From assembly GCA_963716375.1 (NCBI GenBank), contig OY970306.1, positions 1,137,220 through 1,201,219 on the forward strand: a stretch of DNA of 64,000 nt. The letters run 5' to 3'. The translations under genes and the position numbers were made by a program. Positions within the stretch are counted from its first letter, which is position 1, and every line of letters starts with the position of its first letter. The notes under the pieces are model-generated. The model saw nothing but the letters and a program-made list of their open reading frames with translations, had not been told where the DNA came from and ran no database searches. Positions 2-25,980 of the stretch are shown in pieces. The DNA comes from an uncultured Chloroflexia bacterium (GTDB lineage Bacteria > Chloroflexota > Limnocylindria > Limnocylindrales > CSP1-4).

Positions 2-178
2 GCCCACGTACTCCGCGCGGCCCAATCCGAGTACGCCAAGCTCGATCGGTCCATCTCGGCCGTCGAGCTCGCCGGCTGGCCGCCGGACGCTGTCGACGAG
101 CGAACCCGCAGGGCCACGACCCGACGCGTCGAGCGGGAGGGCCGGTCCGTGGTCACCGTGGCGCGAGCCCAGCCATGA
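2..178 (+). CDS. 3' end of eCIS AAA+ ATPase (Afp15/Pvc15-like), partial
   Basis: Frame from base 2 reads AHVLRAAQSEYAKLDRSISAVELAGW..., resembling the C-terminus of eCIS ATPases. TGA 176-178 overlaps the next ATG (ATGA). Confidence 0.7.
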   Translation, partial: AHVLRAAQSEYAKLDRSISAVELAGWPPDAVDERTRRATTRRVEREGRSVVTVARAQP

Positions 179-441
179 CGGACCTCGCCGTGTTCGTCGA
201 TCAGTGGCTCCAGCCGGCCGGCCGGGTCGACCACCAGGCGATCGCCTCGTCGATGGAGGCCGAGCTCGGCCGGCTCGTGGACGAGGGCTCGATCCGATTG
301 CCGGCCGAGCGTGCCATCGAGATCGCCAGCCTGCGGATCGATGGCGCACTGCTGCCGGTCGATCGGCTCGGCGACAGCGCGGCGATCGGTGTCGCCCTCG
401 CGCGGGCGATCGCGAGCGGCCTGCGAGGCCCGGGCCGATGA
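175..441 (+). CDS. Small hypothetical protein of the eCIS locus (88 aa)
   Basis: ATGA-coupled on both sides. The EAELGRL...IGVALARAIASGL pattern resembles small proteins found between the ATPase and DUF4157 genes of eCIS loci. Confidence 0.65.
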   Translation: MTDLAVFVDQWLQPAGRVDHQAIASSMEAELGRLVDEGSIRLPAERAIEIASLRIDGALLPVDRLGDSAAIGVALARAIASGLRGPGR

Positions 442-3400
442 CCGCGCTGATCCGCGAGCGGACGCATGCCCCGGCCGAACCGGCCGCTGCGGTTCCGGCG
501 CGGACACCCCGGAACGTCCTGGCCGCCCGGGAGGACACCGCGCGGCCGCGGGGCATCGCCCCCGCCACCCGGTCCCTGCAGACCGCGGTCGCGGACGCAC
601 CCAGGCCGATCGATGCGGGCGCGCGAGCGTTGCTCGAGCATCGCTTCGGCCAGCCGCTCGGCGGCGTCCGGATCCACACGGGTCCGTCGGCCGCAGACGT
701 CGCCCGGGAAGCCGGCGCGGAGGCCGTCACCGTCGGCAACGACGTCCTGTTCGGAGCCGGCCGCTACGACCCTGCCAGCCCGGCAGGTCTCGAGCTGCTC
801 GCGCACGAGGTCGCCCACACCGTCCAGCAGCGCAACGCGATCGGCCCGGGCGGGCCGGTGACGCAATTCGCCGGGGTGAGCGAACGCTCCAGCGCGCTCG
901 AGCGTGAGGCCGATGCCGCAGCGCGCCACGTCGTGGCCGGACCGGGCGTGGCCGGGGGAGCCGGCGCCCTCCTCGCCTCGCGGGCGACGGGCCCCGTCAT
1001 GTCCCGACGGGCCATCGCCTGGACGAACATCCCGGGCGGACCCCAGACCGCCGGCGGGATGGTCGTCGACCAGTGGGAGAAGGAAACGGACCAGATCGTC
1101 CGTTTCAAGGTGCCGACCTTGACCCTGCCCCGCGAGAAGGGACCGGTCAAGGAGGCCTACACCGCAGCGCTCAAGGCCGGCGGCGACGCGAGCGGTCTCG
1201 AGGCGACGATCGAGTTCGACGGCAAGACGGCGCGCGCCGGCCTGTGGGAATCGCGGGCGCCGACGCCCGACCTCAACCGCCGCTGGCTCGCCAAGGTCGG
1301 CTGGACGGCCGCGGACGCCAACGCCAAGTGGTTCGCGGCAGGAGGCAAGAAGGGCGCCGGATTCCCGACCGCCAATCCGGGCGTCGCCTGCAGTACCTGC
1401 GACATCGACCACATCGTGGAGCTCCAGCTGGGCGGCAGCAACTCGCCGTCCAACCTCACGCCCCTGAACTCCGCGGAGAACCAGAAGAGCGGCCGCGACA
1501 TCTGGCAGAACGTGTCCGGCATCGCCCGCGAGCTGCGCCCGATCGTGCCGGACCAGACCGGCAAGGTCAACATCATCCTCTCGTTCCAGGACGTCGACCA
1601 GGCCGGCGGCTGGGTGCCGCGTCCGGCGGGCACGCCCACGCCCGGCTGCGCCACGTGCAGCTGCAGCGACGTGGATGCGGCCGCCGTGGACGGCGCCAGG
1701 GCCGCGACGGCGGCCGCGGGCGGCACGGAGAGCTACCCGGTCGTCGCGGGCGGCCAGTCGGCGACGTTCGTCGTCCCGCCCGGCGAGGCGGACGTCGGGC
1801 TCCTCGACGACCAGGCCAACATCAACAACGCCGAAGTCATCCCGGGGATGATCCTCGAACTCCTCCAGCGGCCCAAGGCCAAGGGCCACACGGTCAAGGC
1901 GTTCATCGAATCGAAGCCCCACTTCAAGCGCGCCAAGGCGACCCGCCTGCCGCTGGCCATCCAGGGACCCCAGGAAGAGGTCGTCCTCGACGCCATCCCG
2001 GGCACGGACGGCACCCGGCGGCTGAAGATCAAGGGCAACGAGCATCCGCGCGTCAACTTCACGTACCCGTACCTCAGCGCCGGCTGGCTGAAGCTCGATC
2101 TCGGCGAGGCCGGCCTGACCGGCGACGGCCAGCTGACGCCGAGCGTGCCGTTCCTGCGCAACTCGCCGATCGACGTCCACTTCGGTGGCGGCGCCTTCAC
2201 GGGCATCCTGAAGGCCGATCCCAAGCGCCTCCAGCTGCCGATCCCGGGCTTCAAGGTCACGGCCGCGACGATCAAGGTCGACCTCGCGCCGGAGCTCGCG
2301 GTGACCGGCAATGCCGACTTCGCGCTGGGCAAGCTGATCACCGGTCACCTCGAAGCCCAGCCCTCGCTGTCGGGGATCTGGCTGAAGGGCGACCTCTTCG
2401 CCCACATCCCCCGGATCGACGAGGCCAAGGGCGAAGTCGAGTACAAGGACGGCCAGCTCAAAGGGAGCCTGACGCTCAAGGCCGAGCAGCTCGGCAACCT
2501 GCCCGGCAATCCCAGGGGCGAGCTCAAGCTCGGGATCGATTCGAAGGGCCTGACGGCCGACGGCAAGCTCTCGGTCAGCCTGCCCGGCGGCAAGCCACTG
2601 GATCTCGAGGCGAAGCGGTCGCCCGGGACCGGGATCTCCCTCAGCGGCCGGACCTCCTTCGAGATCCCGGGGCTCAGTCCGCTCGAGATCACGATCGGCT
2701 ATGACGGCGAGCATTTCAACGGCCAGGCCGCGACCGGCGTCACCTACAAGGGCCTGACCGGCAAGGTCACGATCAAGTATTACGACGGGAAGTTCTCGGG
2801 CGAGACGGACGCCACGTTCGACAAGGGCCGGCTGGCGGGCCGGGTCCACCTCGTCATCGAGTCCGATGGCAGCCTCTCGGGCGAAGGCGAGGCCACGGTC
2901 AGGATCACCAAGGATCTGAGCGGCAAGATCAGCGTCACCAAGCCCAAGGGTGGCGAGATCGGCGTCAAGGGCGAGCTCATCCTGCCCGACCCGATCACCC
3001 TCTTCCCCGAGAAGGCCGTCAAGGACACGCTCTTCTCGAAGGCCTTCAGCTTCAACATCTTCGGGCCTGTCATCCTCCAGATCCGTCCGTCGATCGGCTA
3101 CGCCGCGGGCGTCGGGCCGGGCACGATCAACAAGGCGAAGGTGGGGGCCGGCTTCAAGCCGTTCGCCGCCGAAACCGACTTCGAGCTGTGGGCGTCGGCG
3201 ACGCTCAAGGTGCCGGCCTATGCCGAGATCACGGCAGCCATCGGTCTTGGAGTCGGCCTGGGCCTCGGCGGTGCGGCGTCCGTGGCGGGCGGCATCGAGA
3301 TCGCCGGCACGCTGCGCTTCGGGACGGAGTTCTCGGCGGCCTTCGACATCCACTACAAGGACGGCGTATTCACGGCCAAGGCGCTGATCGAGGTCGGCGG

Positions 3401-3653
3401 CGGCCTGAAGATCCTGGTGGACATCAACGGCTACGTCCATGCCGAGGCGCTCGGGTTCGACCTGTACGACCACAAGTGGAACCTGAAGCACTTCGAGTTC
3501 GATACGGGCCTCTCGTTCCTCCTTGGCCTGCCGCTCGAGTACGCGTCCAACAAGCCCTTCGTCCTGCCCTCGCGCGACCAGATGACCCTCAAGGGTCCGG
3601 ACTTCTCGATCGACCAGATGACCGCGAACCTGCGGCGAACCCTCGGGATCTGA
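438..3653 (+). CDS. DUF4157 (eCIS core domain) protein with internal HNH-like nuclease motif and Gly-rich beta-strand C-terminal region; putative effector, 1071 aa
   Basis: Start ATG 438 is coupled to the upstream stop, so the ORF-track start at 204 is an over-extension. DUF4157 signature LEHRFGQPLGGVRIHT...LLAHEVAHTVQQ...LEREAD; HNH-type CSTCDIDHIVELQLGGSNSPSNLTPLNSAENQKSG. Confidence 0.85.
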   Translation: MTALIRERTHAPAEPAAAVPARTPRNVLAAREDTARPRGIAPATRSLQTAVADAPRPIDAGARALLEHRFGQPLGGVRIHTGPSAADVAREAGAEAVTVGNDVLFGAGRYDPASPAGLELLAHEVAHTVQQRNAIGPGGPVTQFAGVSERSSALEREADAAARHVVAGPGVAGGAGALLASRATGPVMSRRAIAWTNIPGGPQTAGGMVVDQWEKETDQIVRFKVPTLTLPREKGPVKEAYTAALKAGGDASGLEATIEFDGKTARAGLWESRAPTPDLNRRWLAKVGWTAADANAKWFAAGGKKGAGFPTANPGVACSTCDIDHIVELQLGGSNSPSNLTPLNSAENQKSGRDIWQNVSGIARELRPIVPDQTGKVNIILSFQDVDQAGGWVPRPAGTPTPGCATCSCSDVDAAAVDGARAATAAAGGTESYPVVAGGQSATFVVPPGEADVGLLDDQANINNAEVIPGMILELLQRPKAKGHTVKAFIESKPHFKRAKATRLPLAIQGPQEEVVLDAIPGTDGTRRLKIKGNEHPRVNFTYPYLSAGWLKLDLGEAGLTGDGQLTPSVPFLRNSPIDVHFGGGAFTGILKADPKRLQLPIPGFKVTAATIKVDLAPELAVTGNADFALGKLITGHLEAQPSLSGIWLKGDLFAHIPRIDEAKGEVEYKDGQLKGSLTLKAEQLGNLPGNPRGELKLGIDSKGLTADGKLSVSLPGGKPLDLEAKRSPGTGISLSGRTSFEIPGLSPLEITIGYDGEHFNGQAATGVTYKGLTGKVTIKYYDGKFSGETDATFDKGRLAGRVHLVIESDGSLSGEGEATVRITKDLSGKISVTKPKGGEIGVKGELILPDPITLFPEKAVKDTLFSKAFSFNIFGPVILQIRPSIGYAAGVGPGTINKAKVGAGFKPFAAETDFELWASATLKVPAYAEITAAIGLGVGLGLGGAASVAGGIEIAGTLRFGTEFSAAFDIHYKDGVFTAKALIEVGGGLKILVDINGYVHAEALGFDLYDHKWNLKHFEFDTGLSFLLGLPLEYASNKPFVLPSRDQMTLKGPDFSIDQMTANLRRTLGI

Positions 3654-3667
3654 AGGGAGGACCGGGC

Positions 3668-4309
3668 ATGCCGCTGATGAAAGGTGCGTTCATCGTCTTC
3701 GACGCCCCGGTGCCGGTGCCGACCGACATCATCATGTTCCAGTTCAACAGCGAGACCCTGGTCCGCAAGGTCGATCCGCCCAAGGAGAACACGCCGAACG
3801 CGGGCGCCGCGACCAGGGGCTCGAACGGCAATTCGCACCAGACGCGCCAGCCCACCGAGACCCTCACGGTCGGGATCGAGCTCGATGCCGCCGACCAGCT
3901 CCAGGCCGGCGACGCCCTCGCGACCAGCGTCGGCCTGCATCCGGGCCTCGCCCAGCTCGAGCTGCTGATGTACCCCTCGTCGACGCTGCTGCTCCTCAAC
4001 CAGGGGCTGGCGCTGGCCGGGATCGCCACGATCACGCCATCCAGGACCCCGCTCGTGCTCTTCGTCTGGGGCACGACGCGCGTACTCGCGGTCCACGTCA
4101 CATCGGTCCAGATCACGGAGCAGCAGTTCGACGACCGGCTGAACCCGATCGCCGCCCGGGCGGAGGTCGGCCTGACCGTCCTCAATCCCGAGGATCTGAC
4201 CGGCGCGTTCGCGACCATCGCCATGGTCACCCAGATCGCCAAGGAGGGGCTGGCCAGGGCCGGCACGGTCAGCAGCGCTCTCAACGTCAAGTCATTGCTG
4301 CCGTTCTAG
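3668..4309 (+). CDS. CIS tube-initiator-like protein (Afp7 N-terminal domain-like)
   Basis: GGAGG RBS before ATG 3668. Motifs FQFNSETL, ELDAADQL and PLVLFVWG...VTSVQITEQQFDDRLNPIAA are typical of this eCIS family. Confidence 0.75.
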   Translation: MPLMKGAFIVFDAPVPVPTDIIMFQFNSETLVRKVDPPKENTPNAGAATRGSNGNSHQTRQPTETLTVGIELDAADQLQAGDALATSVGLHPGLAQLELLMYPSSTLLLLNQGLALAGIATITPSRTPLVLFVWGTTRVLAVHVTSVQITEQQFDDRLNPIAARAEVGLTVLNPEDLTGAFATIAMVTQIAKEGLARAGTVSSALNVKSLLPF

Positions 4310-4333
4310 CCCGACGAGCGAGGAGTCGAGTCC

Positions 4334-4639
4334 ATGTTCGGTCCCGGAAGCCGGTACGCAGGCCAGCCGATCGCGGTGTACGTCGACGCCGACGGCCGGC
4401 CGCGGGCCTACGTGACCCTGCGCGAGGTGCCCGCCGCGCGCGTCGTCCGGCCCGAGGACCCGATCCACATCGTGGCCGCCAACGATCGGCTCGACCGCGT
4501 CACGTGGCAGCACCTCGGCGACCCCGAGCTGTTCTGGCGGGTCTGCGACGCGAACGGCGCGCTCCAGCCCGACGAGCTGACCTCGATCGTCGGGCGGCGG
4601 CTCGTCGTGCCGCTCGACCCGCGGGCCGGCAACGGATGA
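4334..4639 (+). CDS. LysM/tail protein X-like eCIS protein
   Basis: MF...SRY start and HIVAANDRLDRVTWQHLGDPELFWRVCDAN LysM-like motif; AGGAG RBS. Confidence 0.85.
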   Translation: MFGPGSRYAGQPIAVYVDADGRPRAYVTLREVPAARVVRPEDPIHIVAANDRLDRVTWQHLGDPELFWRVCDANGALQPDELTSIVGRRLVVPLDPRAGNG

Positions 4640-5763
4640 GCGGCGGCGTGACGATCCAGCTCTCCCTGCTGAAGGCGCCGGCGCCCGCGCCGGTGGTCAA
4701 CGCTGTCCAGGAAGTCGTCGTCGAGACCGCCCTGGACATGGCCGGCGCGTTCTCGATCCGCTTCGGGCTCGGGGCCGATGCGCTCGGCGACTACGGCCTG
4801 CTCGCCCTCGATCCGTTCAAGCCGGGCCTGCCCCTGGGGATCCGGGTGAGCACCGGCACCGTGCCCCTGCCGCTGGCCGTCATCAACGGATACGCCACGG
4901 GCCAGCGGGCGACGTGGGGCGAGGGCGGCAAGTCGGCACTGACGGTCCACGGCACGGACATCACGGGGATCATGAACCTCGAGGAGAAGGTCAAGGCCTG
5001 GTCGAGCGTGCCCGATTCGCTCATCGCCATGGCGATCTTCGCCACGTACTCGGTGATCCCGCAGGTGACGCCGACGGCGCCGCGCCTCATCGACCCGATC
5101 GGGACGGCCATCCAGCGGGGCACGGACATCCGGTTCCTGCGCCGGCTGGCGCGCCGCAACGGCTTCGATTGCTACGTCCTGCCCGAGCCGCTGACCGGCC
5201 TCGACACGGGGTACTTCTCGGCCCCGTCCACGACCGGCATGCCCCAGGCCGTCCTCAACGTGAACATGGGCTCGGCCACGAACGTGCGTGACGTCGACGC
5301 GCGCTACGACATGCTGAAGCCGACGACCGTGCTCACGGCGAACATCGACACGGCGACCAAGGCCCCCCAGCTCGGGGTCGCGCCGGCCTCGCTGCTGCCG
5401 CCGATGGGCCTCGAGCCGACGGGCCTGCGGGCCGTGGCCGGCGCGGGACTCTCGGGCGCGCTGCCGCTCGTCCGCCTCGCCGATCCCAGCAACGGCCTGA
5501 CTCCCGAGGGCCAGGCGGCCGCCCAGGGCATCGCCGACCGGTCGGGCTTCGCGGTCACGGTCGAAGGCACGACCGGTCCCGATGTGGGCGTGCTCCGGCC
5601 GGGCGGGCTCGTCGCCCTGCGCGGTGTCGGGCGGCTGTTCAACGGCCTCTACCAGGTGACGCGCGTCCGGATGACCCTCGCCGAAGGCCGCTTCGAGCAG
5701 CGCTTCTCCGCCCGCCGGAACGCCGTGACGATGACCGGCGCCGAACCCTTCGTGACGCTGTAG
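4636..5763 (+). CDS. Baseplate hub, phage late control D / gp27-like (VgrG N-terminal half)
   Basis: ATGA coupling at 4636. Motifs QRGTDIRFLRRLARRNGFDCY and VLRPGGLVALRGVGRLFNGLYQVTRVR. Confidence 0.85.
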   Translation: MSGGVTIQLSLLKAPAPAPVVNAVQEVVVETALDMAGAFSIRFGLGADALGDYGLLALDPFKPGLPLGIRVSTGTVPLPLAVINGYATGQRATWGEGGKSALTVHGTDITGIMNLEEKVKAWSSVPDSLIAMAIFATYSVIPQVTPTAPRLIDPIGTAIQRGTDIRFLRRLARRNGFDCYVLPEPLTGLDTGYFSAPSTTGMPQAVLNVNMGSATNVRDVDARYDMLKPTTVLTANIDTATKAPQLGVAPASLLPPMGLEPTGLRAVAGAGLSGALPLVRLADPSNGLTPEGQAAAQGIADRSGFAVTVEGTTGPDVGVLRPGGLVALRGVGRLFNGLYQVTRVRMTLAEGRFEQRFSARRNAVTMTGAEPFVTL

Positions 5764-5776
5764 GGAGGCGACGACC

Positions 5777-6484
5777 GTGACCGACCTGCTCCTCGCGCAG
5801 ATGGCCGAGCGCCAGACCGACCGGTTCCTCGGCAAGTACCGGGGCCTCGTCGTGGACAACAACGACCCGCTGCTGCGCGGCCGCCTCAAGGCCATGGTGC
5901 CTGCGGTCCTCGGCGAGATCCCGTCGGGCTACGCGGAGCCGTGCGTGCCCTATGCCGGCACGACGTCCGGACTCTTCGCGATCCCGCCGATCGGGGCGGG
6001 CGTCTGGATCGAATTCGAGGCCGGCGATCCGTCGCGGCCGGTCTGGACCGGCTGCTGGTGGGCGACCGGCGAGGCGCCGATCAGCGAGATGGGCGCACCG
6101 CCGTCGCCGTTCCGCAAGATCCTGCGCAGCGAGACCGGCCTGATCGTGTCGCTGGACGACACGACGGGCACGATCACCCTCTCCGACATCGCCGGCCTGA
6201 ACATCCTGACGATCAAGGTCCTGCAGGCCACGATCCAGGTCCAGGCGCTCGGCCGGGTCGTCCTGGAGGCGCCCCTCATCCAGCACGGCCAGGCCGCCGT
6301 CCATCCGGCGGTCTTCGGCGATCAGCTGCTCGTCTACCTCGCCCAGCTCGTGACGATGTTCAACGCCCACATCCACCCGGGCGAGCTTGCCGCGGGAATC
6401 ATCCCGGTGACGCCCGCGCCACCGGTCCCGCCGATGATGCCGCCGACCCCGGCCCTCATCTCGATCAAGAACCTGGTGGAGTAG
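5777..6484 (+). CDS. Baseplate assembly protein V / gp5-like spike
   Basis: GKYRGLVVDNNDP..RGRLKA.VP, PPIGAGVWIEFEAGDPSRPVWTGC OB-fold; C-terminal FNAHIHP. Confidence 0.9.
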   Translation: MTDLLLAQMAERQTDRFLGKYRGLVVDNNDPLLRGRLKAMVPAVLGEIPSGYAEPCVPYAGTTSGLFAIPPIGAGVWIEFEAGDPSRPVWTGCWWATGEAPISEMGAPPSPFRKILRSETGLIVSLDDTTGTITLSDIAGLNILTIKVLQATIQVQALGRVVLEAPLIQHGQAAVHPAVFGDQLLVYLAQLVTMFNAHIHPGELAAGIIPVTPAPPVPPMMPPTPALISIKNLVE

Positions 6485-6487
6485 GGG

Positions 6488-6784
6488 ATGGGCAAGCTGA
6501 AAGCCGGCTCGATGGGCTCGCCGAACTCGGCCGGGACGCCGCCGGAGTTCGCGAATTCGCTCGCCGCTGCCATCGAGGATGCCTACTGGTCGGCCCTCCA
6601 GGCCGATGGCAAGGACCGGTTTGACCGGTCGTTGAACCAGGACTCCGATCGCGATCGGCGGCGGATCTTCGTCGCCATCGCGCAGGGCGTGATCGGCTAT
6701 CTCGACGCCAATGCCGACGCGTTCAAGGTCGTCGGCCCGGCCGCCATCGTGACCGGCGTCTCGATCGACGTCCAGACGTCATGA
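6488..6784 (+). CDS. Hypothetical protein (98 aa) between spike and gp25
   Basis: Fills the gap exactly, has a purine-rich RBS, and is ATGA-coupled to the gp25 gene. No PAAR motif. Confidence 0.7.
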   Translation: MGKLKAGSMGSPNSAGTPPEFANSLAAAIEDAYWSALQADGKDRFDRSLNQDSDRDRRRIFVAIAQGVIGYLDANADAFKVVGPAAIVTGVSIDVQTS

Positions 6785-9920: not shown

Positions 9921-12577
9921 GCCAGGCGAGCGGTCCCGGCGGATGCGGCTGTGGCGGCGGTGGCTGCGGAGCCTGCAGCGTGCCCGGCGAGGCCATCGTG
10001 CGGATCGACAATCGCCCGTCCCTGCCCGAGGTCCGCTACCGCCGCGGCACGTTCGGGACGTTCCGGCGCACGCTCCTGGATCTCACGGCCCGTGAGTCGA
10101 CCCTCGCCCGGCTCTCCACGCGCGACTCGGACGATCACGCCGTGGCGACGATCGAGCTGTGGGCCGTCGTGGCCGACGTCCTCGAGTTCTACAGCGAGCG
10201 CTACCTCAACGAGTCGTATCTCGGGACCGCCACGGAATCGCGCTCCGTCGAGCGGCTGGCCCGGCTCGTGGGCTATCGGCCGCGGCCGGGGGTGGCCGCG
10301 CTGGCCTGGCTCGCCTTCGCACTTGAAACCGACGCGGCGGCCCTCATCCCTGCGGGAGCCGCCGTCCAGAGTGTGCCGGGCGCGACCGCCGATGGTCCGC
10401 CACCGCCCCCGGTCACCTTCGAGACGCTCGATTCGCTGGCGGCGTCGGCCGTCTGGAACGCGGTTCGCGCCTACACGACGGGCCTCCCGTCGGCGTCGCC
10501 GTTCACCGCCGGCCAGCGCCGGACCGTCCTCGAGCGTGGCACGGCGCCGGCACTCGCGGGCGGCCTGAAACCCAATGACAGGGTCGTCGCCTGGAGCACC
10601 GGCGGCGTCGAGGAGAAGGTCGTCAAGGCCATCGATGCCCGCCCGGATCGCGTCGTCGTGGAGTGGTCCGATCCGGTGGCCGGAACGGCCGGCTCGACGC
10701 CGCAGGTGCGCCGGTTCACCCGGATCCTCGGCGTCTTCGGCTCCGGCGCCCCGACCAACTGGATGCAGCCGACCTCCCAGGCGAGCGCTCCCGGAGGCAT
10801 CCGCTGGGATCTCGTGAACACGCCGTTCTCGATCGCGGCCGGCGCCACCTCGCTCGATTTCGCGGGCAAGGTGGACGATCTCGACGTCGGCGGTGCGCTG
10901 CTCGTCGTCCGTCCCAGCGGCACCCCCCGGCTCGTCACGATCACGGCGATTCGGACCGCGAGCGCGTCGGTCGGGCCGCTGACCGATTCCGTCACCCGCG
11001 TTTCGGTCACGCCCTCGCTGCCCGCGATGAACCGCCGATCGGTCCGGGTCTACGTCCTGGCCGGCCCGGCGATCGGGTTCTGGGGCGGCGACTACGCGGC
11101 CAGCGGGCTGCCCACGGCCGTCTACGTGCCGGTCTTCCGCGCGCCGCTCGTCGACGGGCGGCTGGGGGTGGAGATCGGGCGCCGCATCGAAGCCGGAGCC
11201 TGGGTCGCGGGGTCGGTGGTCGACCTGCAGGACCTCGAGCCCGGCCGCGTCGTCCTTGCCACGTGGGATGGGCCGACTGCGAGTGGCGCGAAGCCCGCGC
11301 CCGTCCCGGCGCGCCTCGATGCGCGACCGGCCCTGCCGGGGTTCGATGCCGATGGATTCGGCCACCTCCGCCTCGATCTCACGTTCACGGAGCCGCCGGG
11401 TGCGGACTGGATCGCGCTCTCGTCCCTGGTCGTGCTCGGCAATGTCGTCCGCGCCAGCCACGGCGAGACCGTGTCCGAGACGCTCGGCAACGGCGACGGC
11501 ACACGCCCGTTCCAGCGCTTCGTGCTCGGCCGCAAGCCCCTGACGTACGTCCCGGCTCGGACCCCGGGCGGCATCGCCTCGACCCTCGTCGTGGCGGACG
11601 ACGGCCTGATCCGGCCCGAGGTCCCGACGCTCTTCGAACAGCCGGCCACGAGCGCGATCGTCGCCACCGCGACGGCGCCCGACGGCGTGACGCGCGTTCA
11701 ATTCGGGGATGGCCGGGCCATGGCCGCGCGGGCCACCACCGGCGTCGGCAACGTCACGGCCCGCTACCGGATCGGATCGGGGCTCGCGGGCCGCGTGCCG
11801 GCCGAGCGACTGACGACCCTGCTGACGCGGCCGCCCGGCGTGAAGGGCGTCGTCAATCCGACCGCCGCGGAAGGCGGCGCGGATCCCGAGCCCCGTGACC
11901 AGTCTCGCCGCAACGCCCCGGCCAGCGTCCGGACCCTCGGCCGGATCGTGTCCCTCCGCGACGTCGAGTCGCTCGTGCTCGCCTCGGGTCTCGTGGCCAA
12001 GGCCCAGGCCATCTGGCTGTGGAGCGGCTACGACCGGGTCATCCACCTGACGGTGGCCGCACCGGAAGGCGACCCGCTCTCGGCGACGCTGCGCGATCTC
12101 ATCGGCGATGGGCTGAACGCGGCACGCGACACGAGCCACCGCCTCGCGATCGAGGATCGGGTCCTCGTGCCGGTGACCCTCACGGCGAACGTGGTGATCG
12201 ACCGGTTCGCCGACCGGCCGGACCTCGTCCTCGCCGGCGTGCTCGCGGCAGCCCGTGGGCTGCTCTCGTTCGACAGCGTCGCACTCGGGACGTCCCTCGC
12301 CGTGTCCGACGTCATTGCCGTCCTGGCGGCCGTGCCGGGGGTGATCGGGATCGACGTCGACACGTTCGGGTTCGCGGCCGCGGCGGGCTTCAGCGGCGCG
12401 GAACTGGACGAGCGAGGCGTCGAACGGGCGCCCGACGGCAGTGTCGCGCCGGTCCAGCCGCGGCTGCGACTGTGGCCGGCTCGCGCCGGCCTGACTCCGG
12501 GCACCGTCCGGCCGGCCGAGTTGCCGTGGGTTCGGGTGACGGGCGACATCCAGATCGTGGACGGAGGCCGGGCATGA
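9917..12577 (+). CDS. Baseplate J/gp47-like wedge protein 2
   Basis: ELWAVVADVLEFYSERYLNESYLGTA...LARLVGYRPRPGVAA, GNVVRASHGET, VQFGDG, GGADPEP, RIVSLRD; coupled start at 9917. Confidence 0.9.
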   Translation: MSQASGPGGCGCGGGGCGACSVPGEAIVRIDNRPSLPEVRYRRGTFGTFRRTLLDLTARESTLARLSTRDSDDHAVATIELWAVVADVLEFYSERYLNESYLGTATESRSVERLARLVGYRPRPGVAALAWLAFALETDAAALIPAGAAVQSVPGATADGPPPPPVTFETLDSLAASAVWNAVRAYTTGLPSASPFTAGQRRTVLERGTAPALAGGLKPNDRVVAWSTGGVEEKVVKAIDARPDRVVVEWSDPVAGTAGSTPQVRRFTRILGVFGSGAPTNWMQPTSQASAPGGIRWDLVNTPFSIAAGATSLDFAGKVDDLDVGGALLVVRPSGTPRLVTITAIRTASASVGPLTDSVTRVSVTPSLPAMNRRSVRVYVLAGPAIGFWGGDYAASGLPTAVYVPVFRAPLVDGRLGVEIGRRIEAGAWVAGSVVDLQDLEPGRVVLATWDGPTASGAKPAPVPARLDARPALPGFDADGFGHLRLDLTFTEPPGADWIALSSLVVLGNVVRASHGETVSETLGNGDGTRPFQRFVLGRKPLTYVPARTPGGIASTLVVADDGLIRPEVPTLFEQPATSAIVATATAPDGVTRVQFGDGRAMAARATTGVGNVTARYRIGSGLAGRVPAERLTTLLTRPPGVKGVVNPTAAEGGADPEPRDQSRRNAPASVRTLGRIVSLRDVESLVLASGLVAKAQAIWLWSGYDRVIHLTVAAPEGDPLSATLRDLIGDGLNAARDTSHRLAIEDRVLVPVTLTANVVIDRFADRPDLVLAGVLAAARGLLSFDSVALGTSLAVSDVIAVLAAVPGVIGIDVDTFGFAAAAGFSGAELDERGVERAPDGSVAPVQPRLRLWPARAGLTPGTVRPAELPWVRVTGDIQIVDGGRA

Positions 12578-15054
12578 GCAGCAGCCGGTTGTGGGACCTG
12601 GTTCCGATCGCCACACGCCAGGACGACCTCGAGGCGGGTGGCGCGCTGCAGGCCCTGCTGGGCATCCTGTCGGACGACGTCGACGCCGAGGAGCGCTCGC
12701 TGTGGGGCCTGTTCGACCAGCTGTTCATCGAGACCTGCGACGAGTGGGCCGTGCCCTACATCGGCGAGCTCGTGGCGAACGACCTGCTCTACGACGCCAG
12801 CCGGGCTGACGATGCCCGGACGGCGACAGAGCTCTTCACCGACCTCGCTCCGCACGACCTGCGTGCCCCGATCGCCGCCCGGGTCCGCGCCGACGTGGCC
12901 CGGACGATCTACTACCGCCGCCGCAAGGGCACGCCGGCGATGCTCGAGGAGCTGGCCCGCAACGTGACGGGCTGGCCGATGCACCTCGTCGAGTGCTTCA
13001 GCCTGCTCGACTGGCCGCAGGCACTCATCCACCTCCGGCCGCAGGCGGCGCTGCTCGACGTCCGCTCCCCGGAGCGCTGTGAGCGAGTGCTCGGTCCGTT
13101 CTCGGATGCGATGCGGACCGTGGACGTCCGATTGCCGCGTCTCGGGGCGACGAGCGGCGCGGTCGTCGGCGCCGGCGTGGTCGGGGTCGCCAGCGTCAGC
13201 GACGACCCGGTGCTCATCGACGCCGTCCCGGCCGACCCGATCGAACCGCCCTACCATCCCCGGACGGCCGCCTTCTTCGGCTGGCGCCTCCAGGCCTCGC
13301 CGCTGGTCTGGCTCGATCCGCGGCCGTCGCCGAGCTGCGCCTTCGGCTGGACGTTCAGCCCGCTCGGCAACCGGGCCCCGCTGTTCTCCCGATGGGAGCG
13401 CGAAGGCGACGAGTTCGGCCTGGCGACGGAAACCGGCGTCCCACAGCCGATCCGCCGATCGCTCTTCTCGCGCGACCTCGACGCGTATCGCGCCTCGGCG
13501 CCCGTCCGTCCGCCCTACACGAGGCTCTATGGCGAGTTCGCCGATCCCGCCGGCACCGCGCTCGAGCTTGCACCCGCGGCCAGTCTCGCGGTCTTCCGCA
13601 ACGGGGCCTTCGTGCCGCCCACCGTCGATCCAACGCAGCTGCCGCAGTTCTTCAGCCCGCAGATCGTCTGCATGCGACTCGATCCGTGGCCCGTCGCGCA
13701 ACCGGCTGGCGCGATCGTCGGCGTGGACGTCGTGGCCGGCCGATTCGTCCTTGGCGCCGGCCTGACAACCGTCGCCGATCCGACCGTCTCGCTCGCGGTC
13801 GCGTACCACCCGGGCCAGGCGGCGGGCATCGGCGGGGGCGGGTACGACCGCGCCGCGTGGCTGATCCCGTTCGGCGCCACGATCGGCGTCGGGTCGGCGC
13901 CGATCCAGCGCTTCACCGTCGGCTCGCGACCGCGCCCGGCCGGGACGCCGCCGCCGACCCACGTCACGGTCGCCGCCGCGCTCGGGGCCTGGGCGGCCGC
14001 CGGCAAGCCGCCGGCCGTGATCACGATCCAGGACTCGAGCACCTATGCCCTGCCCAACGTCACGCTCGAGGACGACTCGTGGCTCGTCCTCGAGGCCGCG
14101 AACAACGAGCGCCCGCACCTCCAGCCCGCTGCGGCCGGCTGGAAGGTCGACGTGAACGTGCCCGTCGGGGCCCGCGACCGCCGCGCGGTCCTGACCCTGT
14201 CGGGCCTGCTCGTGGAAGGCTGGATCGACTTGACGGGTGAGGTCTCGCGCCTGCGGCTGTGGCATACGACGCTCGTGCCCGGCCGTTCACTGGCCGAGGA
14301 CGGCACGCCGGCCTCACGACTGCCGTCCATCGTCGCGCCGGCCGCCAGCGGCCACCTCCAGCTGCGGATCGAACTCGCCTTCAGCATCTGCGGGCCGATC
14401 TGGGCGCCGCCCGGCGAGGAGCGAAGCACGATCCTCGACTCGATCGTGGACGGCCTCGACACGCTGGTCGACGGCAGCCCGGCGCCCTTCGCCGGACCGG
14501 CCATCACGGGCCCGAGCGGAGCGCTCGCCGACGTCGGTCCGGCGGTTCATCTCGAGCGCTCGACCGTGCTCGGCGCGATGAACGTCCGGGAGCTCTTCTG
14601 CTCCGAATCGATCGCGACCGGCCATGTCCAGGTCCAGCGAACGCAGGAAGGCTGCGTCCGGTTCTCCTTCGTGCCCGACGGGTCCGTCACGCCGCGCCGG
14701 TTCCGGACCCAGCCGGAAGCGACGATCCGGGCGGCCGAGACGGCGCGAGTCAAGGACGCGCTGGCGATCAATCCCGCCCTCACCCCGGCCCAGCAGGCGG
14801 CGATCGCCGCCGACGTCCACGCGGCCGTCGTGGCCGCGCTCCTGCCGGCCTTCACGGCCCGCTGGTACGGCGAGCCGGCGTACGGCCAGCTCCGGCGGTC
14901 GACGCCAGGCGAGATCACGCGCGGCGCCGAGGACGGCTCCGAGATGGGAGCGCTCTGCCATCTCAAGCAGTCCTCGCGCGAGGACAACCTCCGTCTCCGC
15001 CTGGCCGAGTACCTGCCGTTCGGCCTCGATCCCGCCCTCGTCTATGTCACCTAG
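12574..15054 (+). CDS. Phage tail protein I-like baseplate/fibre attachment protein
   Basis: FDQLFIETCDEWAVPYIGELV, RADVARTIYYRRRKGT, GCVRFSFVP, YGEPAYGQL, GAEDGSEMGA; coupled start at 12574. Confidence 0.85.
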   Translation: MSSSRLWDLVPIATRQDDLEAGGALQALLGILSDDVDAEERSLWGLFDQLFIETCDEWAVPYIGELVANDLLYDASRADDARTATELFTDLAPHDLRAPIAARVRADVARTIYYRRRKGTPAMLEELARNVTGWPMHLVECFSLLDWPQALIHLRPQAALLDVRSPERCERVLGPFSDAMRTVDVRLPRLGATSGAVVGAGVVGVASVSDDPVLIDAVPADPIEPPYHPRTAAFFGWRLQASPLVWLDPRPSPSCAFGWTFSPLGNRAPLFSRWEREGDEFGLATETGVPQPIRRSLFSRDLDAYRASAPVRPPYTRLYGEFADPAGTALELAPAASLAVFRNGAFVPPTVDPTQLPQFFSPQIVCMRLDPWPVAQPAGAIVGVDVVAGRFVLGAGLTTVADPTVSLAVAYHPGQAAGIGGGGYDRAAWLIPFGATIGVGSAPIQRFTVGSRPRPAGTPPPTHVTVAAALGAWAAAGKPPAVITIQDSSTYALPNVTLEDDSWLVLEAANNERPHLQPAAAGWKVDVNVPVGARDRRAVLTLSGLLVEGWIDLTGEVSRLRLWHTTLVPGRSLAEDGTPASRLPSIVAPAASGHLQLRIELAFSICGPIWAPPGEERSTILDSIVDGLDTLVDGSPAPFAGPAITGPSGALADVGPAVHLERSTVLGAMNVRELFCSESIATGHVQVQRTQEGCVRFSFVPDGSVTPRRFRTQPEATIRAAETARVKDALAINPALTPAQQAAIAADVHAAVVAALLPAFTARWYGEPAYGQLRRSTPGEITRGAEDGSEMGALCHLKQSSREDNLRLRLAEYLPFGLDPALVYVT

Positions 15055-15098
15055 GCGCGTCGCGCCACCCGCCATGCCCACCAGCCGAGGAGCCCGCC

Positions 15099-18000
15099 AT
15101 GCCAGGTGACTACTCCCGTCGGACCTACAACCCCAATCGCGACACCGTCGGGGTCTACGAGCAGCAGGGCCGCGTCCGGCTCGACGCCAACCTCAACGAG
15201 TTCGTCGACCTCATCGATCGCCGGCTGCGCGCGACCTCGCTCGACACGCTGGGGCCGGCCGTCGTGCCGGTGGAGACGCCCGATGGATTCGCGATCGCGT
15301 ACACGGCCGGCAAGCTGACGATCGGCTCCGGTCGGGCCTACGTCGACGGCATCGAGATCGACAATCACGGCCGATCCCTCGACGGGTTCGTCGATCCGGG
15401 CTTCGAGCCGAGGCTCGAGGAACTTCGTGGCCGCGGCCCGATTCCGTTCGATCGGCAGCCCTACGTCCCGGCGGCGCCCTCGCCGTTCGCCCCGGCCGCT
15501 CCCGGCGTGGGCACGTACCTCGCCTACCTCGACGTCTTCCATCGCGAACGCACCTGGGCCGAGGACGCGTCCCTCCTCGACCCCGCCCTCTACGGCATCG
15601 ATACGGCGACGCGCCGGCAGGCCGTCTGGCAGGTCCGGTTCCACGATCTGCTCGGCGGGGCGATCGACTGCTCCACGCCCGACAGCGCCATCCCGAATGG
15701 CTGGAGCGCCATCGTCCGTCCGTCGGCCGCCCGCCTCACGACCAATGCCGTCGGCGTGCCGGTCTCGACCGATCCCTGCGATATCCCGCCGGCCGGCGGC
15801 TTCCGGGGCATCGAGAACCGGCTCTACCGCGTCGAGATCCACGACCCGGGCGCGTTCGGCACGGCCACGTTCTGCTGGTCGCGCGACGACGCGTCGCTGG
15901 CCTCGCCCGTCACGAGCATCAACGGCGCGACGATCGGGATCGTCCGCCCCGGTCGCGACCAGGTCGTCCGCTTCGCGACGGGCGATTGGGTCGAGGTGAC
16001 CGACGACGATCGCGAGCTGTCCGGCCTGCCGGGCCACATCGCCAAGGTCGGGCCCGTCGACGACGTCAAGAGCGAGATGGACCTCGCCCCCGCGCTCCCC
16101 GCGGCCTTCGCCACGGCCGTCAACCCGCGGGTCCGGCGCTGGGACCAGCGGCCGGCGACGATCGGGACACTGCCGGTGACGGCCGCCCCGGTCGTCCTCG
16201 AGGACGGCGTCCAGGTGACGTTCACCCTCGACCCGGCCATTGCCGGCGGCACGTTCCGCACGGGCGAGTACTGGGTCTTCGCCGCCCGCGTCGCGGACGG
16301 CTCGGTCGAGCAGCTCGCGGCGGCTCCGCCCGTCGGGCCCCACCACCACATCGCCCGCCTCGCGGTGGTCGACGGTGGCACGCACACCGTCACGGACTGC
16401 CGGACGAAGTGGCCGTGCCCGTGCGGCGGCGACGGCGGCTGCGATTGCGACGCCTGCGTCACGGCCAATTCGCACAACAGCGGCGCGTTCACGATCCAGG
16501 ACGCCGTCACCCAGGTCGCGGCCAGGGGTGGCACGATCTGCCTCGGGCCCGGCATCTTCCGATTGCGCCGGCCCGTGGAGATCACGAATGCCAACGCCGT
16601 CCGGATCCGCGGCAAGGGCTGGACCACGATCGTCATCACGCCCGGCCGCAAGCCCGCATTCGTCGTCCAGGGCTGCCGCCAGATCACGATCCAGGACCTG
16701 ACGGTGCTGGGCTCGAAGCGACAGATCCTTGCCGAGGAGGCCGTCAAGGGCACCTTCTCGATGGCCGAGCTCGGGGGCACGATCGCCATCGGCGTGGCCA
16801 ACACGATCGGCATGACCGTCGAACGCTGCATCCTCTTCACGGCGCCGGTCCGGCCCGACCGGGCGCCGACCCTCGCGACGCTCGGGGTGGTCGTCGGCCT
16901 GACGGTCCGCGAATGCGTGATCGTCGGCGTCGTGGGCATCGGCAATCCGCTGCCGACGGTCTCGCCCGGCAAGCACATCGCGGGCATGAAGCTGACAGGG
17001 GCCCAGTCGTCGTTCGCGGGGTCGCCGTCGGCGGTCTACGGCGTCGGCGGCGAGCTCGGAGCGAGCGATCGCGAGCAGTACCTCTCGGGCCGCCTGCTGA
17101 TGGCCCACTGGAACGTGATCGACAACCTCGTGGCCGCCGGTCGGGCCGGGGTCGCGCTACTCGGTGCGGTCGTGGCCGCGGCCGACAACCGCTTTGCACG
17201 GAACGATCTCGTGGCCCTGATCGACGCGGGCATCGCGATCGCCACGATCTCGTTGCTCGGGACGATGGAGATCGACGACAACATCGTCGCCTCCGGCGGC
17301 TTCGGGATCCTCTGCGGCACGAACACGGCGCGGATCACCGACAACACGGTGATCGGCTTCCCGACCGGCCGGCTCGGCTCGCTCGGCCCGGTCATCACGA
17401 CGACGACCACGACGACGATCTTCCCCGGCCATGTCTGCGGCGAGGACATCGAGATCGTGGACACCTGGGTCACCGTGAACGGCCCGCTCAATCCGTCGGG
17501 GATTCGGACGCGGGCGGGCATCGTCGTCGTCGATCCGCTCGGTCTGGGGGCCCGGCTGCGGGACATCCGGATCGTCGGCAACGACGTCAACGACGTCGTC
17601 GGTCTCGGGATCGCGGCCCTCTCGCCCGTCCGGCGGCTGCTGATCGATGCCAATCACGTTGTCAACGTCGTGGCCGGCGGCATCGTCACGGTCAGCCTGC
17701 GCAGCGAATCCGTCGTCATCTCGGCCAATGTCGTCGAGCGGGTTCGCGGCGCCGACATCGACCGCGGCAAGGAGGTCGTCGGGTTGCTCGCCGGGTCGGC
17801 CTGGACGACCAGCTCTGCCAGCCTCGGCCTCGGCGCGATCTCGGTCCTGCGGGCCCTGCGGGCCGACGCCCACGACAACATCGTCAACCAGGTCGCCACG
17901 AGTGGCGGCCTCGCCCTCGGCATCACGTTCGTCGGCGTCCGGAGCGGCCGGATCGTCTCGAATCGGGTCCAGGCGGTCGGCGACGATCGGGGGGCGGCGA

Positions 18001-18620
18001 TCGGCGTGCTCTTCCGGGGTCCCTTCGGCAATGCGGAGGCCATCGACAACGAGGTCATCGGCCGGCCCGCCAGTGACGAGTCGACGTGGATCGCGATCCG
18101 GATCGATGACCCCGAAGACAAGCCGACCGCAGTCGAGATCGGGCAGCCGGCGCAGGCGTTCGTCCCGAAGGTCATGGTCCCGAAGCCATTCGGCGAGGTT
18201 GGCGGAGGAGCGAACGCCCCCGCGGCGGCAGGCCTGGCGGGCGTCAATGCCGGCTTCGTCGCGGAGCCCCATCGGGACGTGCCGCAACTGTTCGGGGTGC
18301 TCGCGGCGGTCCGCGGCAACACCGTCGAGGGCGGCGGTCGCCAGCCGGCGGTCCTCGTCAGGGTGCGGGGCAACGCGATGTTCAACGACAACCGGGTCCG
18401 CTATCAAAACGACGAGCGCAGGATCGCGGTCGAGATCGCCGCGGTGAGCGCACTCTTGAACGCGAACTACATCGAGCTCTCGACGCCGTTCGGGCTGGCC
18501 ATCAACGCGGACGTCAATCCGAATGCCGTCGCCACCTCGGGCAACGTCACGAATGGGGTGATCGTGGTCGCCGGCTCACTGCTCGGGTCGCCGTGGGACC
18601 TCCAGAATATCTCCGCGTAG
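15099..18620 (+). CDS. DUF6519 domain protein with C-terminal right-handed beta-helix (putative fibre/tailspike)
   Basis: GAGGAG RBS, MPGDYSR..QQGRVRLDA, GRAYVDGI, GGFRGIENRLYRVEIH, WSRDDAS, YWVFAAR; then GGTICLGPG and repeated IxxN beta-helix rungs. Confidence 0.85.
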   Translation: MPGDYSRRTYNPNRDTVGVYEQQGRVRLDANLNEFVDLIDRRLRATSLDTLGPAVVPVETPDGFAIAYTAGKLTIGSGRAYVDGIEIDNHGRSLDGFVDPGFEPRLEELRGRGPIPFDRQPYVPAAPSPFAPAAPGVGTYLAYLDVFHRERTWAEDASLLDPALYGIDTATRRQAVWQVRFHDLLGGAIDCSTPDSAIPNGWSAIVRPSAARLTTNAVGVPVSTDPCDIPPAGGFRGIENRLYRVEIHDPGAFGTATFCWSRDDASLASPVTSINGATIGIVRPGRDQVVRFATGDWVEVTDDDRELSGLPGHIAKVGPVDDVKSEMDLAPALPAAFATAVNPRVRRWDQRPATIGTLPVTAAPVVLEDGVQVTFTLDPAIAGGTFRTGEYWVFAARVADGSVEQLAAAPPVGPHHHIARLAVVDGGTHTVTDCRTKWPCPCGGDGGCDCDACVTANSHNSGAFTIQDAVTQVAARGGTICLGPGIFRLRRPVEITNANAVRIRGKGWTTIVITPGRKPAFVVQGCRQITIQDLTVLGSKRQILAEEAVKGTFSMAELGGTIAIGVANTIGMTVERCILFTAPVRPDRAPTLATLGVVVGLTVRECVIVGVVGIGNPLPTVSPGKHIAGMKLTGAQSSFAGSPSAVYGVGGELGASDREQYLSGRLLMAHWNVIDNLVAAGRAGVALLGAVVAAADNRFARNDLVALIDAGIAIATISLLGTMEIDDNIVASGGFGILCGTNTARITDNTVIGFPTGRLGSLGPVITTTTTTTIFPGHVCGEDIEIVDTWVTVNGPLNPSGIRTRAGIVVVDPLGLGARLRDIRIVGNDVNDVVGLGIAALSPVRRLLIDANHVVNVVAGGIVTVSLRSESVVISANVVERVRGADIDRGKEVVGLLAGSAWTTSSASLGLGAISVLRALRADAHDNIVNQVATSGGLALGITFVGVRSGRIVSNRVQAVGDDRGAAIGVLFRGPFGNAEAIDNEVIGRPASDESTWIAIRIDDPEDKPTAVEIGQPAQAFVPKVMVPKPFGEVGGGANAPAAAGLAGVNAGFVAEPHRDVPQLFGVLAAVRGNTVEGGGRQPAVLVRVRGNAMFNDNRVRYQNDERRIAVEIAAVSALLNANYIELSTPFGLAINADVNPNAVATSGNVTNGVIVVAGSLLGSPWDLQNISA

Positions 18621-18632
18621 GGAGGCCGAGTC

Positions 18633-19106
18633 ATGGAACCGAACGACAATCCGCGCGATGCGGGCTTCGACCTCGACATCGTCCTGCAGCAGATCCGCGA
18701 CGCGGTCGCGTCCGGTGACGGCCTCGTAGCGGGAATGACGGACGGTTCTGTCGCCCGGGCCGAGGAGCGCCGGCGGGCCGCATCCGCCGCGGCCGGCAAG
18801 GCGGGCGCCACCGCGGCGGATCGCGCCGCGGCCGCCACGGAGCGAACGGCGGCGGCCGACGAGATCAAGCAGGCGAAGTCGCTCGGCGAGGTCCATCGGC
18901 AGGTCCTGACGCTCCTCGGCGAGGACGCCCTGCGGCTCGTCCGCGGCCTGCCGACGGCAATGGCCTGGTCCGACGAGCCGACGATGGGGGAGGGGACCGC
19001 CAGGACGGCTCCTGGCGGCGCGTCTGCTGCCAAGGAGGGCGCGGCCAGTGCCCCGGCCGGGGGTGGCGTCAAGGCGGCGAAGCCCAGGGCGAACTCGAAC
19101 GGCTGA
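18633..19106 (+). CDS. Ala-rich hypothetical protein, last gene of the eCIS operon
   Basis: GGAGG RBS directly after the DUF6519 stop; predicted helical segment; no recognisable domain. Confidence 0.6.
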   Translation: MEPNDNPRDAGFDLDIVLQQIRDAVASGDGLVAGMTDGSVARAEERRRAASAAAGKAGATAADRAAAATERTAAADEIKQAKSLGEVHRQVLTLLGEDALRLVRGLPTAMAWSDEPTMGEGTARTAPGGASAAKEGAASAPAGGGVKAAKPRANSNG

Positions 19107-25969: not shown

Positions 25970-25980
25970 GGAGGATTCCA

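Follow-up and report, generated by a model that had tools for sequence, protein, structure and literature searches.

The promoter-distal part of a probable lineage II contractile injection system operon in an uncultured soil bacterium

Does the block of genes that opens this stretch of DNA (64 kb, called the window throughout) encode a contractile injection system (CIS), and if it does, what would such a particle carry and where would it act? Our analysis indicates that positions 2-19106 most probably represent the promoter-distal two thirds of one chromosomal CIS operon, which belongs to lineage II and to the eBAP5/Tail_P2_I type. The original prediction had described these genes as the distal half of an extracellular CIS (eCIS) operon. 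Their identity as a CIS, and not as the tail of a prophage, is upheld by synteny in more than 20 loci, but the word extracellular is an assumption, because the lineage II systems that have been studied act from the membrane (in haloarchaea) or in the cytoplasm (in Streptomyces and Roseiflexus).

Gene order and relatives of the operon

The G+C content of the window is 70%, and raw lists of open reading frames (ORFs) are therefore full of spurious frames. Over 2-19106, genes were called from the frame-specific G+C content at third codon positions (GC3), the mapping of start codons, and the translation of the first bases. Fourteen ORFs, all on the plus strand, span this region (g0 to g13; Table 1), and each of them has one open frame and a GC3 of 0.87-0.95. 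The gene lengths match those of an annotated operon on a Streptomyces plasmid, so that no frameshift can be seen. The 14 co-oriented genes over 19 kb without a frameshift that had been claimed were thus found again, based on GC3, start mapping, and these lengths. The description of the genes as mostly ATGA-coupled holds at 7 of the 13 junctions, where 4-nucleotide (nt) ATGA overlaps are found, but not at the remaining 6, which are gaps of 3-44 nt with a GGAGG-like sequence in front. No terminator-like sites were present on the plus strand within the 14-gene block, and scans for promoters, terminators, and repeats in 1-24 kb of the window gave nothing beyond chance level.

The conserved order of these genes is what identifies the system. 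The g2 family yielded 114 matches, about 40 of them full length at 28-59% identity; 36 were aligned, and 78 loci were retrieved. tblastn searches of the window genes against the loci showed that the genes from g2 or g3 through g10 are colinear in about 20 loci, with identities of 27-60% (g3 is colinear in 23 loci and g4 in 22). The colinear loci come from Acidobacteriota, Nitrospirota, Pseudomonadota, Verrucomicrobiota, Gemmatimonadota, Chloroflexota, and Myxococcota. Further downstream, g11 follows g10 in 13 loci, and g12 is found in 4 loci. We had considered g11 to g13 as add-ons unique to the window, and this was dropped for g11 and g12, since tblastn located both in relatives.

The complete unit can be seen on plasmid NZ_CP108040.1 of Streptomyces sp. 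NBC_00299, where 18 annotated genes form one operon (locus L079). It runs from the sheath gene to the DUF6519 gene in the same order, which is why we regard the window genes as the promoter-distal two thirds of such a unit. For 9 of the 14 window genes it contains a match, at 27-41% identity. L079 and further syntenic loci (L001, L003, and L007, among others) share with the window the gene order from ATPase to DUF6519, including a DUF4157 protein of about 1100 amino acids (aa) and, directly before the DUF6519 protein, a protein of 826 aa. There are also differences. The window spike is about 60 aa longer than the spikes of the relatives, its fibre has 1173 aa compared with 831 aa in L079, and it carries an extra terminal ORF (g13), whereas no gene follows the DUF6519 gene in L079. 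The relatives, L079 among them, have a PAAR-like DUF4280 gene between spike and gp25, where the window has the unrelated g7. In the literature searched we found no experimental study of these syntenic relatives.

The window opens inside the operon, and the relatives indicate what should precede it. In L001, L003, and L007, Pfam searches of 10-kb flanks showed that the small ORF and the DUF4157 gene are preceded, in this order, by genes for the sheath, a tube of the gp19 type, a T4_baseplate-like protein, an unknown protein (about 267 aa), Pvc16_N/DUF4255, and an AAA ATPase with WHD and AAA domains. Regulators and a muramidase stand at the outer edge of these flanks, and no head genes were found in the 10 kb upstream of these three relatives. 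Among the 23 loci that share g2 and g3, 15 extend far enough upstream and 8 end at a contig or locus boundary. All 15 have sheath and tube upstream, and 14 have the full set (sheath, tube, tube-like protein, Pvc16_N/DUF4255, and AAA ATPase). From this we infer that sheath, tube, a second tube-like protein, a protein of about 270 aa, and a DUF4255 cap would be encoded within about 9.5 kb upstream of the window. As a separate observation, in most of the loci L001-L076, across phyla, the gp19-type tube shares 77-94% identity with that of L003/L007 (two values are lower, 54% and 67%), and the baseplate proteins of these loci are 30-45% identical to those of the window.

The beginning of this upstream part is still visible in g0. 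Its stop codon overlaps the g1 start (ATGA), and its residues 1-26 align with a conserved C-terminal motif of the AAA frames that lie directly 5' of the DUF4157 gene in the relatives. Of the 11 motif matches, 9 finish at most 3 residues from the stop of a frame of 642-838 aa, and 8 of these 9 frames have a Walker A motif. The AAA domain itself lies beyond the window edge, so the claimed AAA ATPase gene is backed by this C-terminal motif, which resembles that of the relatives' AAA frames, but within the window it amounts to a 58-residue tail with 26 aligned residues.

The DUF4157, hub, spike, gp25, and baseplate J genes that had been named before were recovered by family searches (Table 1). Of the CIS core set (Chen et al. 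2019), counterparts of Afp7-like, Afp8, Afp9, and Afp11 proteins are present, together with the DUF4157 marker. For several baseplate genes the assignment comes through the family. The window g3 protein gave no Pfam match, but CIS_tube PF19266 is matched by homologues of g3 in 20 of 22 loci, and 7 of these matches reach or exceed the gathering score. For g4, there are PHROG baseplate wedge/hub matches at 2.7e-4 and 2e-3, and its homologues match Phage_tail_X (3/17) and LysM (1/17), all weakly. The hub g5 matches NCBIfam VgrG_rel at 4.4e-8, which is under the cutoff, and the PDB VgrG chain 9rce_F at 1.8e-4, and 2 of its 20 homologues match Phage_GPD. The wedge protein g9 is 33-37% identical to its relatives across about 900 aa, and g9 and g10, which both match the putative baseplate assembly protein family TIGR02243, are distant paralogues (29% identity over the J domain, E 2e-10). 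Single-sequence searches of the PDB with g1, g2, g9, g11, and g12 gave no match.

The small protein g1 gave no Pfam, NCBIfam, or PHROG match, and as a query it found no relative among species-representative genome contigs; in the related loci it resembles its L001 counterpart (phmmer E 5.7e-6), and jackhmmer unites the same-position ORFs of 12 loci. g13 has no match in Pfam, NCBIfam, or PHROG and no counterpart in 81 loci.

Table 1. Genes of the putative injection operon and other features of the 64-kb window
Feature	Positions	Strand	Description	Evidence
g0	2-178	+	58-codon 3' end of Afp15-like AAA+ ATPase, cut by window edge	C-terminal motif alignment
g1	175-441	+	88-aa conserved small protein between ATPase and cargo gene	Same-position ORFs in 12 loci
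g2	438-3653	+	1071-aa DUF4157 cargo-type protein	eCIS_core/DUF4157 E 2.1e-27
g3	3668-4309	+	213-aa Afp7-like tube-fold protein (tube initiator)	CIS_tube PF19266 in homologues
g4	4334-4639	+	101-aa gpX/LysM-like baseplate protein (second half of Afp7)	PHROG, homologues
g5	4636-5763	+	375-aa gp27/gpD-like baseplate hub (N-terminal half of split VgrG/Afp8)	VgrG_rel
g6	5777-6484	+	235-aa gp5/gpV-like spike (OB fold and beta-helix)	Phage_base_V 1e-21
g7	6488-6784	+	98-aa orphan ORF in PAAR-like (DUF4280) slot of relatives	GC3 0.88
g8	6781-7233	+	150-aa gp25/Afp9-like baseplate wedge (sheath initiator)	GPW_gp25 2.9e-15; phrog_43 4.4e-14
g9	7230-9920	+	896-aa first baseplate-J/gp6/Afp11-like wedge	TIGR02243 8.4e-60
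g10	9917-12577	+	886-aa second baseplate-J/Afp11-like paralogue	TIGR02243 6e-55; Baseplate_J 1.4e-3
g11	12574-15054	+	826-aa P2 gpI/Mu gp48-like baseplate adaptor	Matches of family members
g12	15099-18620	+	1173-aa tail-fibre-type protein, DUF6519 (eBAP5) anchor, right-handed beta-helix C-terminus	DUF6519 4.2e-35
g13	18633-19106	+	157-aa alanine-rich orphan ORF at operon end	GC3 0.87
Zinc-ribbon/adenylate-cyclase/AAA_16 ORF	19205-21196	+	Overlaps the TPR ORF
TPR ORF	open from 20979, first start 21045, end 22772	+	Overlaps the preceding ORF
dnaG-rpoD	24008-27705		Housekeeping genes
tRNA-Asn	29684-29758		tRNA gene
Small-terminase fragment	30110-30433	-	11 kb downstream of operon	Terminase_4 7e-9; phrog_83 3e-14
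DNA-methyltransferase-like ORF	30941-31879	-	Beside tRNA-Asn
HNH endonuclease	32304-32780	-	Beside tRNA-Asn
Zinc alcohol dehydrogenase, cofactor domain	34476-35174	-	Apparently split gene, overlapping different frames
Zinc alcohol dehydrogenase, GroES-like N-domain	35032-35457	-	Apparently split gene, overlapping different frames
Rhamnose utilisation cluster	51293-62568		Mutarotase, ABC transporter, DeoR regulator, isomerase-like TIM barrel, fused aldolase/short-chain dehydrogenase, FGGY kinase

Candidate cargo, fibre, and spike tip

What would such a particle carry? The candidate cargo is g2. Its DUF4157 domain occupies residues 57-134 and covers profile positions 1-78 of 79. It is preceded by an N-terminus (1-56) in which 37 of the 56 residues are A, R, P, or T. 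An HExxH motif together with a DH-x2-ELQ...N...N motif is conserved in all 36 aligned members of the family; the latter is the HNH-like motif, at about 322-357, and a PHROG HNH family is matched at 6e-4. The N-terminus of 13 of the 36 members has a CxC...CxxC motif, which the window protein lacks. The C-terminal 500 residues are glycine and beta rich, with a weak internal repeat (E 0.004). Judged by its invariant HExxH and HNH-like motifs, g2 may combine a handling domain resembling proteases with an effector domain resembling nucleases.

At the g2 position, the DUF4157 part is all that most syntenic loci have in common with the window protein. This fits a swappable cargo better than a fixed structural protein, and it weakens the case for g2 as an invariant component of the structural core. 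DUF4157 has been described as a marker of eCIS core proteins or toxins whose role is unknown (Geller et al. 2021, Danov et al. 2024; PMC8213781, PMC11297309). Previously, it was shown for the AlgoCIS of Algoriphagus machipongonensis that the DUF4157 proteins Cgo1 and Cgo2 are cargo in the tube lumen (PMC8894135) and that loading of this cargo requires a disordered N-terminus and the AAA+ protein Alg15 (PMC8894135; bioRxiv 10.64898/2026.05.27.728243). The cargo there is built from a disordered N-terminal stretch, DUF4157, and a C-terminal domain that varies; g2 appears to have the same architecture, and Cgo2, which is loaded by the AAA+ ATPase, is near g2 in size (1228 aa). AlgoCIS differs in belonging to lineage Ib, with another baseplate and other fibres, and the g2 family profile matches no PDB chain. 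By its domain order, g2 would fit a cargo protein of the AlgoCIS type.

The C-terminal 500 residues of g2 also recur in a 1269-aa hypothetical protein of the Cereibacter azotoformans plasmid pORIO4 (L081, 8401-12210). The identity is 26.7% over 520 aa, and the DUF4157 part is not matched there. The gene closes another tail-like cluster, in which it comes after an ATP-binding protein gene and a 221-aa ORF.

At the other end of the operon, g11 and g12 match the description of eBAP5/Tail_P2_I-type systems as far as their sequences can tell. The window g11 protein has no Pfam match, but it belongs to a large family, with 3822 cluster representatives at E<=1e-3 and 73% identity to the nearest of them, and of 37 members scanned, 8 match Phage_Mu_Gp48 and 7 match Tail_P2_I, weakly. 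Because family members give these matches, we consider g11 a wedge or adaptor of the gpI type. The g12 protein is anchored by DUF6519, and its C-terminal part shows a weak Beta_helix match (5.8e-3). Full-length homologues have precomputed PF13229/PF05048 matches, and the family profile weakly matches NosD and beta-helix glycosidases. In plasmid loci, conservation of g12 is limited to residues 1-435, as expected of a fixed anchor with a variable receptor-binding part. According to a 2026 fibre catalogue, which is bioinformatic, DUF6519 is eBAP5, a baseplate anchor of tail fibres; the fibres that have this anchor frequently carry a beta-helix pectin-lyase fold at their end and have Tail_P2_I adaptors as partners (PMC12923769). 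The window shares with this type a DUF6519-anchored fibre 3' of the baseplate genes, a gpI-like adaptor directly 5' of it, and a beta-helix end. The type is correlated with Actinobacteriota in the catalogue (PMC12923769), whereas the sigma factor of the window host does not look actinobacterial.

The spike tip is where the locus departs from its relatives. A DUF4280/PAAR-like protein of about 107 aa lies between spike and gp25 in 12 of 18 relatives (16 had a candidate ORF). When compared by hhalign with a DUF4280-like profile, the Streptomyces counterpart gave a probability of 99.7% and g7 gave 0.04%; g7 has no family match in Pfam, NCBIfam, or PHROG either. The locus had been called intact, which is true of its unbroken genes but not of its gene set, as the PAAR-like gene of the relatives is missing. 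Because the window has no PAAR-like gene in any frame, the tip of the spike may be incomplete or built differently. The spike protein g6 is extended at its C-terminus by 58 aa, which include an HIHPG motif and a tail rich in proline, and this extension is missing from 4 aligned relatives. In P2 gpV-type spikes, iron is bound by HxH motifs at the apex, and for this reason the g6 spike may sharpen itself. A more elaborate proposal is that the PAAR-like tip has been replaced, with the g6 extension as a metal-bound apex and g7 as a helix-looking tip adaptor or effector, in a bacterial lineage II injector whose lumen cargo, from the cross-phylum DUF4157 family with the invariant HExxH and HNH-like motifs, would be a nuclease payload. 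We consider this combination possible but rather unlikely.

Subtype and mode of action

Which kind of lineage II system is this? In the key of Chen et al. 2019, two afp11 genes mark subtypes IIa and IIc, and an afp8 gene divided between a gp27 and a gp5 ORF is typical of IIa, IIb, and IIc; divergent afp12/afp13 genes occur in IIa and IIb and are mostly absent from IIc and IId, and PAAR is absent only from IIb (PMC6899500). In IId, afp11 is single and afp8 is not split (PMC6899500). Here we find two afp11-like genes (g9 and g10) and a split afp8 (g5 and g6), and by gene content the locus is therefore IIa or IIc and not IId. Between these two, IIa is favoured by g11 and g12, which occupy the positions of the divergent afp12/afp13 genes. 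The afp10 (PAAR) gene of IIa is absent from this locus.

The clade IIa system of the Halogeometricum borinquense plasmid pHBOR03 shares with the window a LysM protein, a split VgrG, gp25, two baseplate assembly proteins, and then a tail protein, and in H. borinquense DUF4157 proteins are secreted as cargo or toxins (PMC11566945). It differs from the window in its division into two subclusters, where ATPase and cap are encoded on the opposite strand, and in having a PAAR gene, an archaeal host, and a membrane-anchored mode. Compared with its proteins, g8 is 34% identical over 102 aa and g9 is 27-29% identical over 200-270 aa. Because this similarity is remote, we have not filed the locus firmly under IIa. 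The IId systems of Streptomyces and of Roseiflexus and other Chloroflexota, the latter possibly from the same phylum as the window, have lineage II, ATPase, DUF4255, sheath, and baseplate genes in common with it, but they have one afp11 and an unsplit afp8, whereas the window has two afp11, a split afp8, and a fibre gene. CIS particles of Roseiflexus have been imaged, and others have been purified from other Chloroflexota and from Deinococcota; these are IId and are thought to be cytoplasmic (PMC12998442). The original prediction that such systems have had little or no experimental study in this phylum is therefore dated by the 2026 imaging in Roseiflexus and other Chloroflexota (subtype IId; PMC12998442). 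For bacterial systems of the type found in the window, a non-exhaustive search turned up no experimental work, and supplementary tables may list such loci.

If the operon works as its gene content suggests, the hub, spike, and wedges would nucleate a baseplate upon which tube and sheath would polymerise. The AAA+ ATPase would feed g2 into the tube lumen via its putatively disordered N-terminus, as for AlgoCIS cargo. The fibres would then bind a surface glycan, the sheath would contract, the spike would pierce the target, and g2 would be released.

That the genes belong to a functional CIS at all has two competitors. They might be the tail module of a myovirus prophage, as spike, gp25, and baseplate-J proteins are common to phage tails and a small-terminase fragment is present in the window. 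However, this fragment is on the opposite strand next to tRNA-Asn, at a distance of 11 kb and with dnaG and rpoD in between, and AAA ATPase, DUF4157, and DUF6519 are CIS markers (PMC8213781; PMC12923769). A search of 50,697 phage records gave no match for g2, g11, or g12, and for g9 only the J domain was matched, in 13 records and over 25-35% of the query; against plasmids, by comparison, at least 80% of the g9 query was covered in 11 of 19 records. The relatives have no capsid genes within 10 kb upstream. No capsid, portal, large-terminase, or T6SS (type VI secretion system) membrane-complex families were found in the ORFs scanned across the window, which agrees, as far as the window reaches, with the predicted lack of capsid and membrane-complex genes, the small-terminase fragment being the exception. 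A prophage origin of the operon thus appears extremely improbable. The genes might also be an orphan or decaying remnant, with the sheath and tube half absent or broken and the loss of the PAAR-like gene as an early sign of decay. The upstream half does fall outside the window, the PAAR-like gene is missing, and two nearby genes that do not belong to the CIS appear frameshifted, but 13 complete genes without a stop or frameshift over 19 kb, with strong coding GC3, speak against a remnant. Translational coupling is kept, the codons are host-like, and the operon runs upstream into the ATPase gene as in all relatives. We consider decay very unlikely.

The mode of action is much less certain. That the particle is released and acts on other microbes has in our estimate a roughly even chance, and the fibre gene g12 favours this mode, judged by analogy with catalogued fibres. 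The remainder is divided between a cytoplasmic and a membrane-anchored mode. In the cytoplasmic mode, particles would be retained and would fire inside the producer under stress, resulting in regulated cell death; this is the case in Streptomyces, and the same has been proposed for Roseiflexus. To date, the CISs imaged in Chloroflexota have all been free particles in the cytoplasm (PMC12998442), the family scans of the window showed no lysis or release genes, and no immunity-like gene is evident beside g2. The systems for which this mode has been studied are IId, however, with a single afp11 and an unsplit afp8, neither of which is found here (PMC6899500), and a DUF6519/beta-helix fibre gene is a sign of extracellular targeting in the fibre catalogue (PMC12923769). 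We therefore regard retention in the cytoplasm as unlikely, although it deserves to be kept in mind. A membrane-anchored, contact-dependent, T6SS-like system, as described for the clade IIa CIS of H. borinquense, would agree with the baseplate gene logic that is common to the window and pHBOR03 and with the DUF4157 proteins secreted there. The remote similarity to the H. borinquense proteins and the different operon layout speak against it, and no membrane-anchor candidate was found, as the hydrophobic 19-mers of g10-g12 lie within large soluble-looking proteins. This mode seems distinctly improbable to us.

Several results weigh against our interpretation of the locus as a lineage II, eBAP5/Tail_P2_I-type CIS with a DUF4157 cargo and should be kept together. 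The sheath, tube, and cap genes of this genome fall outside the window, which opens inside the operon. No significant family match was obtained with g3, g4, g5, and g11 of the window themselves, and their roles come from homologues and position; profile searches of the PDB with the g11 and g2 families gave nothing significant. The placement in lineage II, subtype IIa/IIc, fits a gene-content key and not a tree with reference sequences, and the only studied clade IIa system, that of H. borinquense, is a membrane-bound, contact-dependent T6SS to whose proteins those of the window are remotely similar (PMC11566945). At the spike tip, a DUF4280-like profile found no match among 738 six-frame segments of the 64-kb window. 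For the candidate cargo, the three HNH Pfam models that match the g2 motif do so below threshold (E 0.002-0.036), in 6 of the 36 members.

Chromosomal setting and host

The operon appears to be a long-standing part of this chromosome. The relative synonymous codon usage of its 13 complete genes correlates with that of 20 other window genes at r 0.996, compared with 0.993 in a half-against-half control, and the GC3 values are 0.917 for the operon and 0.910 for the other window genes. As the codon usage equals that of neighbouring housekeeping genes, we consider the cluster host-adapted and not a recent arrival, which fits a long-resident locus and the earlier description of it as maintained. 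Downstream of g13 follow a cyclase-AAA_16-TPR gene, an ArsR-type regulator, dnaG, and rpoD. The dnaG-rpoD pair and a rhamnose utilisation cluster confirm the chromosomal setting.

Some of the neighbouring genes are of interest in their own right. The cyclase/AAA_16 and TPR ORFs overlap, the coding signal changes frame near 20,950-21,000, and the second frame is coding before its first start codon. The region 19205-22772 therefore looks like one gene for a STAND-type regulator of about 1190 aa with a frameshift or sequencing error. The zinc alcohol dehydrogenase gene is also apparently split. The genes at 29684-32780 look like a truncated prophage end, which is separated from the injection operon by dnaG and rpoD. 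Rfam and tRNA scans found only tRNA-Asn.

The assignment of the host to Chloroflexota was weakly backed by three results. RpoD has very many metagenomic relatives, which are 82-89% identical to it. Its scores against PDB sequences are 412-423 bits for SigA chains 368-390 aa in length, which we take to be from Firmicutes, 362 bits for actinobacterial-type HrdB/SigA, and 338-350 bits for longer RpoD and Thermus-type chains. The best relatives of the g5 hub are loci from two metagenome-assembled genomes, one of Limnocylindrales and one of Anaerolineae. In a g9 tree of 14 rows, built from the window and the 13 of 25 loci with a match of more than 700 aa, the window pairs with the Limnocylindrales locus (Shimodaira-Hasegawa-like approximate likelihood ratio support 73), both on long branches. 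As far as these comparisons go, a Chloroflexota host is compatible with the data, and they argue against Actinomycetota.

The locus adds a member to an already catalogued kind of injection system and is not a new kind, and the variation at its spike tip is a small peculiarity. Lineage II injection systems are widespread in soil bacteria, and the forms that have been studied are only the haloarchaeal (IIa) and the Streptomyces and Roseiflexus (IId) ones. The locus described here looks complete and is adapted to its host, and it represents the eBAP5/Tail_P2_I type in a high-GC lineage of soil bacteria that is abundant but uncultured, with a candidate nuclease cargo and a fibre of the glycan-binding type, as predicted from its sequence. 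It may serve as a test case for whether bacterial systems of this type are truly extracellular and for what replaces PAAR at their tip.

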